In this document: positions 4,242-12,481 of the stretch, in pieces | Numbering within the stretch: position 1 is the first letter of the stretch | Layout of the letters: each line of letters starts with the position of its first letter | Source of the DNA: Escherichia phage vB_Eco_F31 | Sequence record: OP870147.1 | Direction: 5' to 3' (one strand) | Length of the DNA: 64,000 nucleotides | Made by a program: the position numbers and the translations under genes | Notes under the pieces: generated by a model | The model's input: the letters and a program-made list of their open reading frames with translations, nothing else | The model's database searches: none | Told to the model about the DNA's origin: nothing

Positions 4242-4299
4242 AATATTCTCCTCATGTTTTAATAGGACTACTATAATATAGCCCTATCAGTTTGTACAC

Positions 4300-4500
4300 T
4301 TATTTTGACATTTCTTCGATGTCACGACGATACCCATCACGAACTTCACGAAGAGCTTCAAGGCCACACATAGGCTCGATACCAGTAATGTGAACTTGAT
4401 TAATCTGATACTCTACATCTTCTAACTGAGCGAAAACATAACGACGTTCTGCTGCACAACCAGGTTTAGCTTTACCGAAACGTTTATTCAAAGTAGTCAT
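4300..4500 (-). CDS. hypothetical protein
   Basis: ORF track 4300..4518; ATG 4500 preferred because preceded by GGAG SD and downstream of the early promoter. Confidence 0.45.
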   Translation of the reverse strand: MTTLNKRFGKAKPGCAAERRYVFAQLEDVEYQINQVHITGIEPMCGLEALREVRDGYRRDIEEMSK

Positions 4501-4538
4501 TTTTATATCTCCATTCACTCATTTGTTTTGATAGGTCT

Positions 4539-4568
4539 ATAGTATCAACAACTACAGACCTTGTAAAC
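4539..4568 (-). promoter_or_regulatory. early promoter (GTTTAC-N18-TACTAT) with flanking inverted repeat AGGTCT/AGACCT
   Basis: T4 early-promoter pattern upstream of 4300..4500. Confidence 0.5.
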
Positions 4569-4580
4569 TGTTTTGTGAAA

Positions 4581-5537
4581 TTATTTGAAAGGTTTTACCA
4601 TATGAAAGTTTTGTTTGAAACGCTTGACGTAATCGTCGTGTCCTAAGCTTTGGTACATACTTACTACTTTGCTATAATTTTCCCAAGCGAACTCACGGAA
4701 CCATCCTGATGTGATTGATGTACAGACCTTTTCAAGGGCCATCATAAAACTATCACGTGGATGGATTTTAAAGTCGTTAGGAATCTGTGAACGTTCAAGA
4801 GCTAATACACAAGCTTCTTCATATACACCGGCTAATTTAACCATTTCTGGTAACGATTCGAACTTCTCGCGTGAGGTCATGACTTCAGAACCGTCTTTCA
4901 TATAAAACTTATAAGCAGGCTGGTCAGTTAGTGCAATGGCTTCATGGATAGTATCATGGTCATACGTATAGATGTCATCTTTAAAGAACGCACTTTTAGA
5001 AGTGTCAAGAACTGGGTGAGCATAATTCAAGGTTTCTTTCTGGCGTTTCAGCATAATTTCAGTAAGTTCATCGTTCAGTGTAACACCTTTACCACGAAGA
5101 TACTGAATATGGTTCATAGTCTTTAAAAAGAATGGATTATTTTTCTTGAAACGATGAGACATCTTAATTGCAAGACATATCTCAGGAGTTGCCCAGTAAA
5201 ACCCGTTCAAACGGTCTTTAGTCAAATTTTTCTTGGAGTATTTTAAAAGGTCATAAGAAGACGTGAAATCTTCAGGAGTGAGTTCACCGACTAGTTCGCG
5301 AACGTTAGTGATAGCCGGAACGATGTATGCTTCAAAATGAGTTTCGCGTCCATTATGGAAGCATTTGAAAACTTGGACATCAGGGTTATCTTGGTGAACA
5401 TATACACCCATCATTTGATTTTTGAATGCATTCCAAGAACCTTGGTCCGCAATAAAGTCCCAGTCACTATTTTTAATAGCGCTAGAATCAATAAGACCGT
5501 GATAGTGAAGTGCACGAGAACCAATAACTAACATCAT
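4581..5537 (-). CDS. hypothetical protein with possible nucleotidyltransferase-like N-terminus
   Basis: 318 aa; N-terminal IGSRALHYHG...SDWDF resembles a GS...DxD signature (weak, unverified). Confidence 0.5.
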   Translation of the reverse strand: MMLVIGSRALHYHGLIDSSAIKNSDWDFIADQGSWNAFKNQMMGVYVHQDNPDVQVFKCFHNGRETHFEAYIVPAITNVRELVGELTPEDFTSSYDLLKYSKKNLTKDRLNGFYWATPEICLAIKMSHRFKKNNPFFLKTMNHIQYLRGKGVTLNDELTEIMLKRQKETLNYAHPVLDTSKSAFFKDDIYTYDHDTIHEAIALTDQPAYKFYMKDGSEVMTSREKFESLPEMVKLAGVYEEACVLALERSQIPNDFKIHPRDSFMMALEKVCTSITSGWFREFAWENYSKVVSMYQSLGHDDYVKRFKQNFHMVKPFK

Positions 5538-5565
5538 AATATTTTCCTCGGATTAATTCATTAAC

Positions 5566-5805
5566 TTAAATTTCACGACATGCGATATTATATTCATCCC
5601 AGAGGTCATCATGTGAAGCCTCTACCAATGGAACGATTGTACCGTTTATGTCTTCATTATAAGGGCAAATTGTACAGTGCGCATCTTCGAATCGGATGCC
5701 TTTGTGTTCAGATTTTTTATAACGCATATCGAATATCTTTGCAAACTTTTCACGAGTAATGGTTTTACCAACCACTTTGGTTCCGATACTTTCGTAATAA
5801 ATCAT
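5566..5805 (-). CDS. hypothetical small protein with CxxC motif
   Basis: ORF track 5566..5817; ATG 5805 preceded by GGAG; contains HCTICPY. Confidence 0.45.
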   Translation of the reverse strand: MIYYESIGTKVVGKTITREKFAKIFDMRYKKSEHKGIRFEDAHCTICPYNEDINGTIVPLVEASHDDLWDEYNIACREI

Positions 5806-5822
5806 TGTGGACTCCATTTGTT

Positions 5823-5863
5823 TTGATAGGACTACTATAACATAGCCCTATCTTGTTGTAAAC
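5823..5863 (-). promoter_or_regulatory. early promoter module (GTTTAC + TA-rich -10) with repeated element GATAGGACTACTATAACATAGCCCTATC
   Basis: Near-identical to the modules at 4262-4288 and 12443-12470. Confidence 0.5.
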
Positions 5864-5867
5864 TGTT

Positions 5868-6065
5868 TTAGCAAGAATAACTAGATGATACCCAGCCTTG
5901 AACAGTGATATTATTGTGGGATAATGAGATCGCGTCCTGGAGATTCAGACCTGCGTTATCTTCAATCCATAATGTAACTTCTTCGCGTTCTTCTGTTGCA
6001 ATTTGGAACAGGTTTTCCAGAGCAGCTACTGCCGTACGTACAGCACAATCTAATTCACGAGACAT
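5868..6065 (-). CDS. small protein, GWVxSSxxC C-terminal family (paralog 3)
   Basis: 65 aa ending ...VQGWVSSSYSC. Confidence 0.5.
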   Translation of the reverse strand: MSRELDCAVRTAVAALENLFQIATEEREEVTLWIEDNAGLNLQDAISLSHNNITVQGWVSSSYSC

Positions 6066-6074
6066 ATTGTTTCC

Positions 6075-10823: not shown

Positions 10824-10900
10824 TGGTCGAGACAGAAGGATTCTAACCTTCAACCTACGGATTAGAAGTCCGTTGCTCTATACAATTGAGCTATGCCTCG
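10824..10900 (-). tRNA. tRNA-Arg (anticodon UCU), CCA encoded
   Basis: Manual cloverleaf: acceptor CGAGGCA/TGTCTCG, D-arm GCTC-AATTGTATA-GAGC, anticodon loop CTTCTAA, T-arm GAAGG-TTAGAAT-CCTTC. Confidence 0.8.
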
Positions 10901-10903
10901 GAT

Positions 10904-10978
10904 TGGTGACCCTGGCTGGTTTCGATCCAGCTACCTATCAGTTATGAGCTGACAGCTCTCCCATTGAGCTACAGGGCC
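10904..10978 (-). tRNA. tRNA with CAU anticodon (Ile by lysidine modification, or Met), CCA encoded
   Basis: Manual cloverleaf: acceptor GGCCCTG/CAGGGTC, D-arm GCTC...GAGC, anticodon loop CTCATAA, T-arm GCTGG-ATCGAAA-CCAGC. Confidence 0.75.
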
Positions 10979-11040
10979 TTAATAACTTTCTATTATGAAA
11001 GGCACTTTAGAGCACCTTTGGTAATAGAGGGTATGAATTA

Positions 11041-11065
11041 ATAATAACACATAATTCTTAAAGCA
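11041..11065 (-). promoter_or_regulatory. putative MotA-type middle promoter upstream of tRNA cluster
   Basis: Minus strand TTTGCTTTA then 12 nt then TATTAT. Confidence 0.3.
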
Positions 11066-11573
11066 AATCAATCATTTTAACAGTCGGCAAAACGATTTCT
11101 TCTTCAATATAAGCAAATTCAACACATTCAACTACACGCAAGAAATCATAATCATAATATTCAGAAGCATGGCCAAGAATATCAATGAGACCTTCTGATA
11201 CTAAATATCCATTCTCATGGAACAGGTCAAATATACGTGATTCATCTTCTTCAGATTTATTACCGAGGTCGACTTCAATATCAAAGACCTTTTTAATGAA
11301 TTCTGGATAAAGCTGGTCTGAGAACAGTCCTTCAACCAAGTATTCATAGATTAAAAGCGAGCAATCACTGAATGGTGTATTACCACAGTAACGTTCAGCT
11401 TTAGTGCTAGAATGACGACTCTTAAATTTCTTCAAGAGATATTTAAACTGTTGGAGCTCATGCTCTTCTACACCAAATAATGTTTTGGTTTTATAGTTAT
11501 CGCCGTCATTTTCCCAAGTAGTGACATCAATTACGTAACCTTTAGGAATTGTACTGCCTAAACAAATATTCAT
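11058..11573 (-). CDS. hypothetical protein
   Basis: 171 aa ORF, ATG start. Confidence 0.55.
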   Translation of the reverse strand: MNICLGSTIPKGYVIDVTTWENDGDNYKTKTLFGVEEHELQQFKYLLKKFKSRHSSTKAERYCGNTPFSDCSLLIYEYLVEGLFSDQLYPEFIKKVFDIEVDLGNKSEEDESRIFDLFHENGYLVSEGLIDILGHASEYYDYDFLRVVECVEFAYIEEEIVLPTVKMIDLL

Positions 11574-11577
11574 TTAC

Positions 11578-11868
11578 TCACCGTACCATATTAATGTAAT
11601 TATATTCAATGCAACGTAATTTCAAAGGATTCTTGAAAATATCATATTCAAGAGGGCCTTTTTCTGTTTCAATAAAGAAATCAAAGTTAACTGTGTTAAA
11701 TTTATCGTCTTCACAGAGTAATTTAACCTGTGAAGACGAACGGTCGATATAAACCTTTTCAACCTCAAAGTTAGTCAGAATACCGTAGTCATCGACTAGT
11801 GCTTTAGCTGCACGTCGGTCGCTTTCATATCCATTCTCAATGGACGATACTTTAGCATAAAGAATCAT
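11578..11868 (-). CDS. hypothetical protein
   Basis: 96 aa ORF; ATGA overlap with upstream gene. Confidence 0.55.
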   Translation of the reverse strand: MILYAKVSSIENGYESDRRAAKALVDDYGILTNFEVEKVYIDRSSSQVKLLCEDDKFNTVNFDFFIETEKGPLEYDIFKNPLKLRCIEYNYINMVR

Positions 11869-12227
11869 GAATGTTCCACCATTTCAAAGGTATGAGCATC
11901 AACAATATGATACCAGTCAAAATTTTCTTCTGCGTTTTTATAAATTTCGCGAAGAGCTTCAACAGTTTTTCCTGTAGCAACAAGGTCGTCAATACCACCA
12001 AGAGGATAACAGTCATAACCAGCAAACAGAAGAAAATTAATAGTTTCTGTAGGTTCTGGATGCAGAACACCGTTATCGTCTACCACTTCAAAGAAAGTGT
12101 AAGAAGGAGTACAAGTTTTAATCCAAGCCCATGCTTGAGCCGCTGAATCAAATGGTCTGCGTATCAAACGACAATCAGGGTCTTTAGAAGGATTTGCTTC
12201 AAAATCAGCATATACATGATATTTCAT
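11865..12227 (-). CDS. hypothetical protein
   Basis: ORF track 11865..12245; ATG 12227 preceded by AAGGTGAG. Confidence 0.5.
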   Translation of the reverse strand: MKYHVYADFEANPSKDPDCRLIRRPFDSAAQAWAWIKTCTPSYTFFEVVDDNGVLHPEPTETINFLLFAGYDCYPLGGIDDLVATGKTVEALREIYKNAEENFDWYHIVDAHTFEMVEHS

Positions 12228-12228
12228 T

Positions 12229-12414
12229 TTACTCACCTTTTGCAATTTTATCCATAACGATAGCGATTAAGCTGATTAGAAATGCTACTACCAATGAGAT
12301 AGAGTTTTCAGTTGTTGTCAGTAGTCCACAAATGAATCCTACAAACATCGAAAAACTAAAAGCCATTGAAGCAATTACTACAGCAACATTACGAATCAGT
12401 TCAGCGCGTTTCAT
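12229..12414 (-). CDS. small membrane protein
   Basis: ORF track 12229..12435; ATG 12414 preceded by GGAGAAA; single long hydrophobic segment. Confidence 0.45.
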   Translation of the reverse strand: MKRAELIRNVAVVIASMAFSFSMFVGFICGLLTTTENSISLVVAFLISLIAIVMDKIAKGE

Positions 12415-12442
12415 TTTATTTCTCCATTTACTCATTTGTTTT

Positions 12443-12481
12443 GATAGGACTACTATAACATAGTCCTATCTGCATGTAAAC
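12443..12481 (-). promoter_or_regulatory. early promoter module (GTTTAC + -10) with perfect 9-bp inverted repeat GATAGGACT/AGTCCTATC
   Basis: Upstream of 12229..12414; module shared with 4262 and 5825. Confidence 0.5.

Follow-up and report, generated by a model that had tools for sequence, protein, structure and literature searches.

Why should the early promoters that precede the small accessory genes of a T4-type phage be built repeatedly from nearly the same blocks of sequence, several of which are inverted repeats? The question is raised by a 64,000-nucleotide stretch of Escherichia phage vB_Eco_F31 (sequence record OP870147.1), the whole of which is referred to here as the window. An earlier note, made from the letters of the window, had read these blocks as promoter-early stem-loop (PeSL) cassettes, elements reported for T4-type phages as agents of modular gene shuffling. 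In the analysis described below, every feature of that interpretation that can be tested at the sequence level was found, from the stem-loops at early promoters to the modular shuffling of the genes behind them. We consider it probable that the early promoters of Mosigvirus, the RB69-like group to which the window itself belongs, are PeSL cassettes put together from reused modules, with hairpins that would fold on RNA read through from upstream. PeSL elements are already known in T4-type phages, and the finding made in the window is real and mostly ordinary.

Mosigvirus phages, which are RB69-like phages of the T4 type, match the window at 96–98% identity between positions 4000 and 12600; MM02, APCEc01 and O157 typing phage 3 (O157tp3) are examples. 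Placement by means of annotated relatives identifies this region as the denV–e–e.x–tRNA–ipI–57B segment, with minus-strand genes throughout, while late structural genes on the plus strand occupy the window from about 17 kb onwards, as judged from the RB69 map. The open reading frames (ORFs) found downstream of the cassettes are mostly of 54–154 residues and are without a Pfam family.

Predicted early promoters of the T4 type

The genome-wide motif search proposed in the earlier note was run over the window and upheld the claim that minus-strand early promoters of the T4 type stand before small accessory genes. The pattern GTTTAC-N17/18-TAnnnT occurs at 12 sites on the minus strand and at two on the plus strand, neither of the latter being promoter-like. 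A weight-matrix scan built on the pattern matches raised the number of distinct sites to 13 and an ATTTAC variant was added by eye (cassette 8677), giving 14 sites, without exception on the minus strand; shuffled sequence yields about none to one (four in one run). A scan with a generic sigma-70 consensus was non-discriminating (57 sites versus 46 ± 7 in shuffles), its top matches nevertheless being the cassettes. Each cassette is named here by the coordinate of the G of its −35 element, namely 61257, 45639, 12836, 12481, 9546, 9175, 8962, 8677, 6751, 5863, 4568, 4299, 1273 and 532; this count of 14 includes site 6751, which is weak and intragenic. Of these cassettes, 12 lie within 1–13 kb of the window, in the denV–e–tRNA–ipI region.

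The sites have the form (G/A)T(T/G)TAC-N17/18-TAnnnT, with an A-rich region upstream and TG at −15/−14. A cassette spans about 80–100 bp and consists, in order, of an A-rich UP tract, the −35 element GTTTACA, an 18-nt spacer, an extended −10 element of the form TGnTA(C/T)(T/A)(A/G)T, a conserved start box, CCTATCAA, about 4 nt past the hexamer, a ribosome-binding site (RBS) and ATG. Given the usual distance of 7 nt from the −10 box, the transcript would start at the A of CCTATCAA. Thirteen of the 14 cassettes have a GGAG, GAGG or AGGA motif followed by ATG 25–45 nt past the −10 box, the exception being the intragenic site 6751. At this site (6722–6751), GTTTAC-N18-TATAAT lies within a coding region (e.3), with neither start box nor RBS; it is also the lowest-scoring site (4.9) of this region in the RB69 list discussed below, and is probably not a real cassette.

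Nolan et al. (2006; PMC1524935) predicted 58 early promoters in phage RB69 with a hidden Markov model started from the T4 consensus, in which GTTTAC occupies −36 to −31, C occupies −3 to −1 and a UP-like tract is rich in A. After coordinate conversion, the window cassettes match RB69 promoters of this list one to one, the counterparts being Pe:64193, 64934, 67959, 69254, 70143, 72069, 72354, 72567, 72936, 76459/76812, 77187, 109605 and 125323. The features that characterize T4-type early promoters, GTTTAC, TAnnnT, an A-rich region (−40 to −44) and a location 5′ of early-gene orthologues, are all present. Agreement with the RB69 list makes the promoter reading independent both of the earlier note and of the weight matrix, the reading itself still being a prediction, and the window sites are very probably early promoters of the T4 type.

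Cassettes assembled from reused modules

A 28-nt block around the −10 box had been reported at three sites. All three copies were recovered, two of them where they had been placed (4261–4288 and 12443–12470) and the third at 5825–5852, 2 nt away from the 5823–5850 given before. The 27-nt core of the block (4262–4288, 5826–5852 and 12444–12470) is found three times in the window and in none of 100 dinucleotide shuffles. The copies belong to cassette 4299 (4242–4324, on the minus strand like all features described below; upstream of ORF133c; −35 element GTGTAC at 4294–4299), cassette 5863 (5806–5888; upstream of ORF135c; −35 element at 5858–5863; RB69 Pe:69254), which has one G·U pair in its stem, and cassette 12481 (12415–12506; upstream of tRNA.4; −35 element at 12476–12481; −10 box TATAGT at 12452–12457). 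At the last of these, the inverted repeat GATAGGACTA/TAGTCCTATC (12443–12470) is indeed perfect, and it extends over 10 bp rather than the 9 bp first reported. A 50-nt cassette holding the 28-nt block is present at 6–10 places per Mosigvirus genome; far from being confined to the window by chance, the blocks recur throughout the genome in Mosigvirus and are also found in Tequatrovirus phages.

A second module had likewise been described at three sites. It was recovered exactly at 45577–45618 and with two mismatches at 9113–9154, whereas the copy at 9487–9525 proved to be only partial, having the 30-nt core CTCCTCTGTGGTTGATAAGTCTATAGTATC in common with the others and a different ATG-proximal end. 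The exact copy is carried by cassette 45639 (45573–45664; RB69 Pe:109605), which is isolated in the late-gene block between genes 23 and 24, where it stands upstream of tiny ORFs (RB69ORF189c/188c). The other two copies are part of cassette 9175 (9116–9200; −35 element ATGTAC at 9170–9175; RB69 Pe:72567), upstream of ORF145c (8951–9115), and of cassette 9546 (9490–9571; −35 element at 9541–9546; −10 box at 9518–9523), which has a 17-nt spacer and lies upstream of an ORF at 9184–9489.

The sharing extends beyond these two modules. Any two cassettes have in-register exact runs of 11–31 nt in common, and the partner changes from one sub-module to the next. Cassette 4568 (4501–4593; −35 element at 4563–4568), upstream of an ORF of 66 residues, matches cassette 12836 over 19 nt in its UP/−35 part and cassette 12481 over 19 nt in its start box and 5′ leader; cassettes 5863 and 12481 share 31 nt. 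Cassette 45639 has a 24-nt exact run in common with cassette 9175, from the RBS through the first codons (as in ORF145c at 9115), and 21 nt in common with cassette 9546, covering the −10 box and the start box. On the evidence of these alignments, the cassettes are mosaics drawn from a small set of modules that is reused across the genome. Cassette 12836 (12773–12861; −35 element GTTTAC at 12831–12836; −10 box TACTAT at 12807–12812) precedes ipI and is placed like RB69 Pe:77187, just downstream of 57B; Pe:77187 drives the ip gene ORF156c.

Two further recurring modules were observed. A 5′-leader module, AAACAAATGAGT(A/G)AAT(N)GGAGA(A/T)ATAAAATG, is found at 12415–12440 and 4501–4527 of the window and at RB69 Pe:55018. 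It has an upstream ATG right before the RBS. In cassette 12481 this ATG is in the reading frame of tRNA.4, in cassette 4568 it is out of frame, and it could represent a mini-ORF, a standby site or a target of RegB (GGAG). In RB69, a promoter module of the form GT(T/G)TACAACCAAGGATGGTTGGAGTATAAT recurs at four sites far from one another (Pe:8947, 51019, 52042 and 8387), with identity over about 30 nt; this family, which has no member in the window, contains a small inverted repeat, AACCA/TGGTT, entirely within the spacer.

Hybrid junctions at gene gains and losses

Window positions 1–14500 were compared with nine Mosigvirus relatives. This comparative alignment, which had been suggested as a check on the PeSL interpretation, revealed that the flanked ORFs are variably present among relatives and that the junctions are hybrid cassettes. 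RB69, KMB38, ST2 and AV111 are without window positions 4300–4561 (262 bp), which hold one cassette and the variably present cargo ORF of 66 residues (4300–4500; PHROG 6200), and the single cassette found at this place in RB69 is the upstream half of cassette 4568 fused at GT(T/G)TACA to the downstream half of cassette 4299. ATK47 is without 8927–9108 (ORF145c), with a 30-bp overlap, and the junction is again a hybrid, joining the upstream half of cassette 9175 to the downstream half of cassette 8962 (8905–8987; upstream of frd.3; −35 element ATTTAC at 8957–8962; −10 box TATAGT; RB69 Pe:72354). In RB69 and ST2, a segment has been replaced from 9501 onwards, a position in cassette 9546 that lies past the −10 box and before the ATG. 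Both internal-protein (IP) loci lie in the window, and ip gene swaps at these loci are bounded by cassette elements. In DCP548 another internal-protein gene replaces ipI, the boundaries being the capsid-targeting codons and the −35 element of the next cassette (12481), and in ATK47 an extra Ip7 gene with its cassette is inserted between the start box and the RBS–ATG of cassette 12481. AV111 and O157tp3 are without ip-like genes, with crossovers in an RBS–ATG–MKTYQEF repeat adjoining cassette 532 (472–557; RB69 Pe:64193), which lies upstream of an internal-protein-like gene (169–471).

Repeats other than promoters also serve as junctions. NBG1 is without 9607–10117, which hold an ORF of 154 residues, the deletion lying between two copies of a terminator-like module, GCCCCTTCC..GGTTGGGGCTTTTTGGCAT, with a 32-bp overlap at the junction. 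The two copies (10118–10150, the upstream one, and 9575–9606, just upstream of cassette 9546) flank the 154-residue ORF (9613–10077), and NBG1 has exactly one copy. The upstream copy, which corresponds to the 3′ end of the small stable RNA rnaC annotated in ATK47 and T4, is also the right-hand breakpoint of the RB69 replacement. Internal-protein-type genes (window 134–800 and 12750–12772) have a common RBS–ATG–MKTYQEFI capsid-targeting start, and it is this coding repeat, and not a promoter, that constitutes the crossover for several ip gains and losses (AV111, O157tp3 and DCP548).

Four events are unrelated to cassettes: one at 2538–2756, an intragenic one at 9200–9228 and two insertions in the tRNA region (around 10827–10903). 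In the change at 9200–9228, a module has been exchanged within a gene: at the 3′ end of ORF 9184–9489, a 29-bp segment in the window corresponds to a 217-bp segment in MM02, ATK47 and DCP548, the products having 101 and 167 residues, respectively. A search of the window against Rfam returned two tRNAs only, tRNA-Arg(UCU) and tRNA-Met(CAU), at 10824–10978. Some relatives have an insertion of 750–870 bp between or beside the two, which adds tRNA-Asn, and that of DCP548 contains an ORF of 221 residues at the site where T4 has the segB homing endonuclease; the plasticity of this tRNA region is independent of the promoter cassettes. A transposon, a miniature inverted-repeat transposable element or a homing endonuclease was also considered for the gains and losses and was rejected, as neither terminal inverted repeats, target duplications nor enzyme genes were found at the junctions.

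A cassette-bounded unit in another genus

The unit formed by cassette 4568, the 66-residue ORF and cassette 4299 (4236–4590) is also present, at 91–94% identity, in the Tequatrovirus phages teqdroes, JLBYU24 and KAW1E185, near 52 kb, at the nrdC.10 locus. The homology extends from the UP/−35 part of the upstream cassette to the RBS–ATG of the downstream one, and the flanking Tequatrovirus genes have no similarity to the flanks of the unit in the window. T4 represents the empty site, with a single promoter upstream of nrdC.10, and JLBYU24 is equivalent to T4 plus the insert, with CTATCAA at both ends as direct repeats. In those Tequatrovirus genomes the 50-nt cassette with the 28-nt block occurs once only, at this unit, and the contrast with the 6–10 copies of Mosigvirus suggests a Mosigvirus-like donor. 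The ORF145c module is found in Tequatrovirus phages too, at 85–87% identity, with the homology fading within the cassettes.

Hairpins within the promoters

The stretch from the end of the −35 element to about +9 was folded and its energy was compared with those of 200 dinucleotide shuffles. The strongest signals are those of cassettes 12481 (−16.6 kcal/mol, z = −6.0), 5863 (−16.0 kcal/mol, z = −6.0), 4299 (−14.5 kcal/mol, z = −5.2) and 4568 (−15.5 kcal/mol, z = −4.4; an 11-bp hairpin at 4533–4561) and of cassette 1273 (−19.2 kcal/mol, z = −6.0), which lies upstream of denV (1217–1298; −35 element at 1268–1273). Weaker signals were obtained for cassette 8677 (z = −2.8), which precedes e.6 (8622–8702; −35 element ATTTAC at 8672–8677; −10 box TATAAT) and has the inverted repeat GAGAGC/GCTCTC at 8642–8663, for cassette 12836 (z = −2.5; AGGATG/CGTCCT) and for cassette 9546 (z = −2.0), where the spacer sequence TTCTTCT pairs weakly with the RBS. 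Hairpins are thus significant in five to seven of the 14 promoters, five having z ≤ −4.4 and two more having z near −2.5 to −2.8. The same test gave no folding signal for cassettes 532 (z = −0.5), 8962 (z = +0.8), 45639, 9175, in which a spacer-internal repeat is not beyond chance, and 61257 (61190–61282), an isolated cassette equivalent to RB69 Pe:125323, upstream of alt.-3. Among the additional inverted repeats to which attention had been drawn, those at 4533–4561 and 8642–8663 withstand this comparison, and the spacer palindrome at 61237–61250, in cassette 61257, does not (z = +0.4).

Two geometries can be distinguished. In the first, the arms bracket the −10 box, the loop coincides with the extended −10 element and the 3′ arm extends from −7 to about +3. 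In the second, the −35-proximal part of the spacer pairs with the RBS region, as in the denV cassette, where TTCCTCCAAG pairs with CTTGGAGGAA. The stems, such as GATAGGACTA, AGGTCTGTAGT and GAGAGC, are AT-rich, and several of them contain G·T pairs. Since the predicted transcript start falls within or past the 3′ arm, the hairpin can form only on RNA read through from an upstream promoter. The possibility that the −10 hairpins are intrinsic terminators was rejected, as they have no U-tract and are absent from the terminator scan; the separate G/C terminator repeats at 9575–9606 and 10118–10150, one of which is just upstream of cassette 9546, do have GGGGCTTTTT.

The generality of this pairing was evaluated with the 57 minus-strand RB69 promoters of Nolan et al., unselected and taken from the assembled RB69 genome. 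When a spacer is paired with the 34 nt downstream in its own promoter, the mean duplex energy is −10.1 kcal/mol, versus −6.9 kcal/mol for mismatched pairs (z = −9.5; 0 of 20 000 permutations), and the same test applied to the 14 window promoters gave −9.9 versus −7.3 kcal/mol (p = 0.0006). In a fixed register, in which spacer position 14 is paired with the first base past the hexamer, the 40 RB69 promoters with 18-nt spacers have 59.5% paired cells, versus 54.9 ± 1.6% after column shuffling (two of 500 shuffles reach the observed value) and 34–48% in slid registers; the modest margin over the column shuffle implies a partly palindromic character of the consensus itself. The register-free duplex test, which is much stronger than the fixed-register covariation test, shows promoter-specific pairing in addition to this. 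A T4 sample has the same property (z = −4.8), this sample being small and defined by pattern (13 sites in 65 kb), as the T4 GenBank and RefSeq records carry no promoter features.

Compensated differences occur between the arms of related promoters. Among paralogues, GAGAGC/GCTCTC is found beside GAGAGA/TCTCTC and GGAGC/GCTCC (the latter two in RB69 paralogues of cassette 8677), and GATAGGACTA/TAGTCCTATC beside GATAGGGCTA/TAGCCCTATC and, in ATK47, GATAGGGTA/TACCCTATC. The orthologous denV promoters have the same layout with different arms, ATCTCCTGTAG/CTACAGGAGA in T4 and TTCCTCCAAG/CTTGGAGGAA in the window, and at the regB, ipI and trna.4 promoters the hairpin is likewise kept between T4 and RB69-type phages while the arm sequences differ. 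The RBS-pairing geometry is also found at RB69 Pe:61376, 7443 and 20537 and at the T4 regB and denV promoters.

Interpretation and alternative explanations

A mechanism compatible with these observations would begin with the host sigma-70 RNA polymerase, which would read the cassettes in the first minutes of infection. Phage homologous recombination would use the shared patches as crossover points, and accessory genes, each with its own promoter, would thereby be inserted, deleted, swapped and moved between loci and genera, as in the PeSL mechanism. The hybrid junctions and the cross-genus module argue for this part of the scheme, and the cassettes are likely to act as PeSL-type linkers for homologous or microhomology recombination. 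The hairpin, for its part, would insulate the cassette. RNA started at the cassette's own promoter would lack the structure, its 5′ arm being in the spacer, and would be translated; read-through RNA would fold, and either its RBS would be masked (the denV and regB type) or a stem bracketing the −10 box would attenuate or mark it. Such insulation through read-through RNA, to which the geometry, the compensatory variation and reporter data from RB49 point, has in our estimation a chance somewhat short of even. The broader idea that the early-promoter hairpins of T-even phages form a general, selected system that signals where a transcript began is put forward only tentatively, and we regard it as rather improbable. 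If true, it would extend to dozens of early promoters a logic known from four cases at T4 late promoters (e, soc, 49 and I-TevI), and would explain how each shuffled gene brings its own expression level to a new site.

Several points weigh against the interpretation as a whole. Hairpins beyond chance are missing from six of the 14 cassettes, so that the stem-loop is not obligatory, and the −10 hairpins are followed by AAAACAA, an A-rich tract, instead of a U-tract. Paralogous cassettes share ancestry, which inflates the permutation statistics, and within Mosigvirus the orthologous promoters vary little, the few changes being not consistently compensatory. Sense and antisense strands fold about equally (31 versus 25 promoters in RB69), and without a clear difference between their energies RNA-level action is not told apart from DNA-level action. 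A hand tally places roughly seven of 22 distinct breakpoints within promoter cassettes, whose share of the region is about 8%; this co-location is partly forced, because viable whole-gene indels must end in intergenic DNA, which is mostly cassette, and for the same reason the hybrid junctions weigh more than the breakpoint count. Promoter starts and termination are predictions in this phage and in its genus.

Could the sites be plain strong promoters and nothing more, the blocks resulting from selection for an optimal T4-type sequence and the repeats and the coincidence with indels being by-products? The self-complementarity of the consensus, which leaves 54.9% of cells paired after column shuffling, the hairpins missing from six of 14 promoters and the intergenic space of the region, almost all of which is cassette, would fit this explanation. 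Sigma-70, however, does not normally constrain the spacer, and yet the spacer pairs with its own downstream sequence (z = −9.5), and complementarity is kept while the arms differ among paralogues and orthologues. Neither would optimal promoter sequence account for junctions that are in-register hybrids of two cassettes, or for a whole cassette–ORF–cassette unit at an unrelated locus in another genus, and plain promoters are considered an unlikely explanation. A slightly smaller probability is assigned to hairpins that act as DNA, as cruciforms or in single strands, aiding melting or providing hot spots for recombination or replication forks (for example through endonuclease VII) with no function in RNA. 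The near-equal folding of the two strands is what such structures would produce, melting nucleates at the extended −10 element, with which the loop coincides exactly, and crossovers lie in or adjoining hairpins; on the other hand, crossovers are also found in parts without hairpins (the −35 element, the start box and the RBS–ATG), the G·T pairs of the stems are tolerated in RNA but correspond to A·C mismatches on the other DNA strand, and one class of hairpin pairs with the RBS, which is sensible only for RNA.

The inverted repeats around the −10 box might instead be operators for a dimeric phage or host protein that switches a subset of early promoters off (or on), with the 28-nt block defining a regulon. 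An operator would account for the perfect palindrome, which has the −10 box at its centre and keeps one register, and for the presence of the GATAGGACTA block at 6–10 sites per Mosigvirus genome; its half-site would nevertheless have to be common to the families, whose arms are unrelated (AGGTCT/AGACCT, GAGAGC/GCTCTC, GGTGGAGTT/AACTCTACC and the anti-RBS arms). The compensatory covariation of the arms fits nucleic acid structure rather than the half-site of one protein, as do the G·T pairs in the stems, and no theme unites the genes that follow the block, all of which makes the operator very improbable.

Under the preferred reading, that of PeSL cassettes made of reused modules, the RB69-like Mosigvirus phages become a third branch of the T4 family in which early-promoter cassettes would be the linkers for the gain, loss and movement of accessory genes. 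Many of the shuffled genes are likely to be countermeasures against host defence, as exemplified by the IPI nuclease inhibitor. Such movement is illustrated unusually cleanly by the cross-genus unit, whose empty site can be identified in T4, and the cassettes mark the ends of cargo genes, which is useful for annotating and engineering therapeutic T4-like phages. What goes beyond the literature is that spacers pair, genome-wide and with conserved structure, with either the start region or the RBS, a property that suggests a mechanism of insulation.

Comparison with known systems

PeSLs were described in RB49 and phi1 as an AT-rich tract, an early promoter, a stem-loop, an RBS and ATG, the stem-loop most often lying between the −35 and −10 elements or overlapping the −10 element (Arbiol et al., 2010; PMC2839356). 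Recombination between PeSLs, which are concentrated in hyperplastic regions, deletes or inserts ORFs, and in RB49 promoter and terminator activity was demonstrated with reporters and mini-circles were detected by PCR (Arbiol et al., 2010). The window cassettes have the same layout and are likewise concentrated in hyperplastic regions, in front of small ORFs with no known function, and the crossovers of indels among relatives are similarly located either past the −10 box and before the ATG or further upstream in the cassette. The RB49 elements differ in their near-perfect TTGACA/TATAAT promoters and in stems made of G-runs and C-runs, where the window has GTTTAC...TAnnnT with CCTATCAA and AT-rich, family-specific stems; moreover, terminator, promoter and mini-circle activities were measured in RB49, whereas the window cassettes are known from sequence alone.

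A closer counterpart is provided by the T-even phages. Analogous elements with T4 early promoters and weaker, AT-rich stems were noted at T-even internal-protein loci in the discussion of Arbiol et al. (2010), and PeSLs were later extended to PST/T4 and nt-1/KVP40 (Comeau et al., 2014; PMC4122927). The T-even analogues (Comeau et al., 2014; Repoila et al., 1994) resemble the window in their TTTACW-N17-TAYWAT promoters, weak and variable AT-rich stem-loops and ip gene swaps. According to a figure legend of the 2014 study, the PST stem-loops lie just upstream of the promoter, whereas the significant stems of the window either enclose the −10 box or join the spacer to the RBS. The predicted RB69 promoters are orthologues of the window cassettes, and the study that reported them gave a 51-nt motif and positions (Nolan et al., 2006); neither 'stem-loop' nor 'inverted repeat' occurs in its text, modular exchange is also not mentioned there, and a literature search found no paper that combines PeSLs with RB69.

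The T4 genes e, soc, 49 and I-TevI have a hairpin that sequesters the RBS and contains a late promoter, providing temporal control (reviewed in PMC3014915). They have in common with the window the promoter within the hairpin, the masking of the RBS on read-through RNA and the lack of the 5′ arm on RNA from the internal promoter. This RBS-sequestering geometry is seen in cassette 1273 (denV) and weakly in cassette 9546, and does not apply to the hairpins that bracket the −10 box; the internal promoter of the T4 genes is late (TATAAATA), whereas that of the window is of the early type and its effect on translation is a prediction. The linkers of Botstein and Campbell and the morons of Hendrix are likewise units of a gene and its promoter exchanged via short conserved flanks, but morons are not thought to move via regulatory sequences, whereas in the window the regulatory cassette itself is the homology. 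Judged by its sequence features, the window departs from the PeSL pattern only in what is specific to RB49 (TTGACA and polyG/polyC stems), and agrees with the T-even variant of the PeSL on every point.

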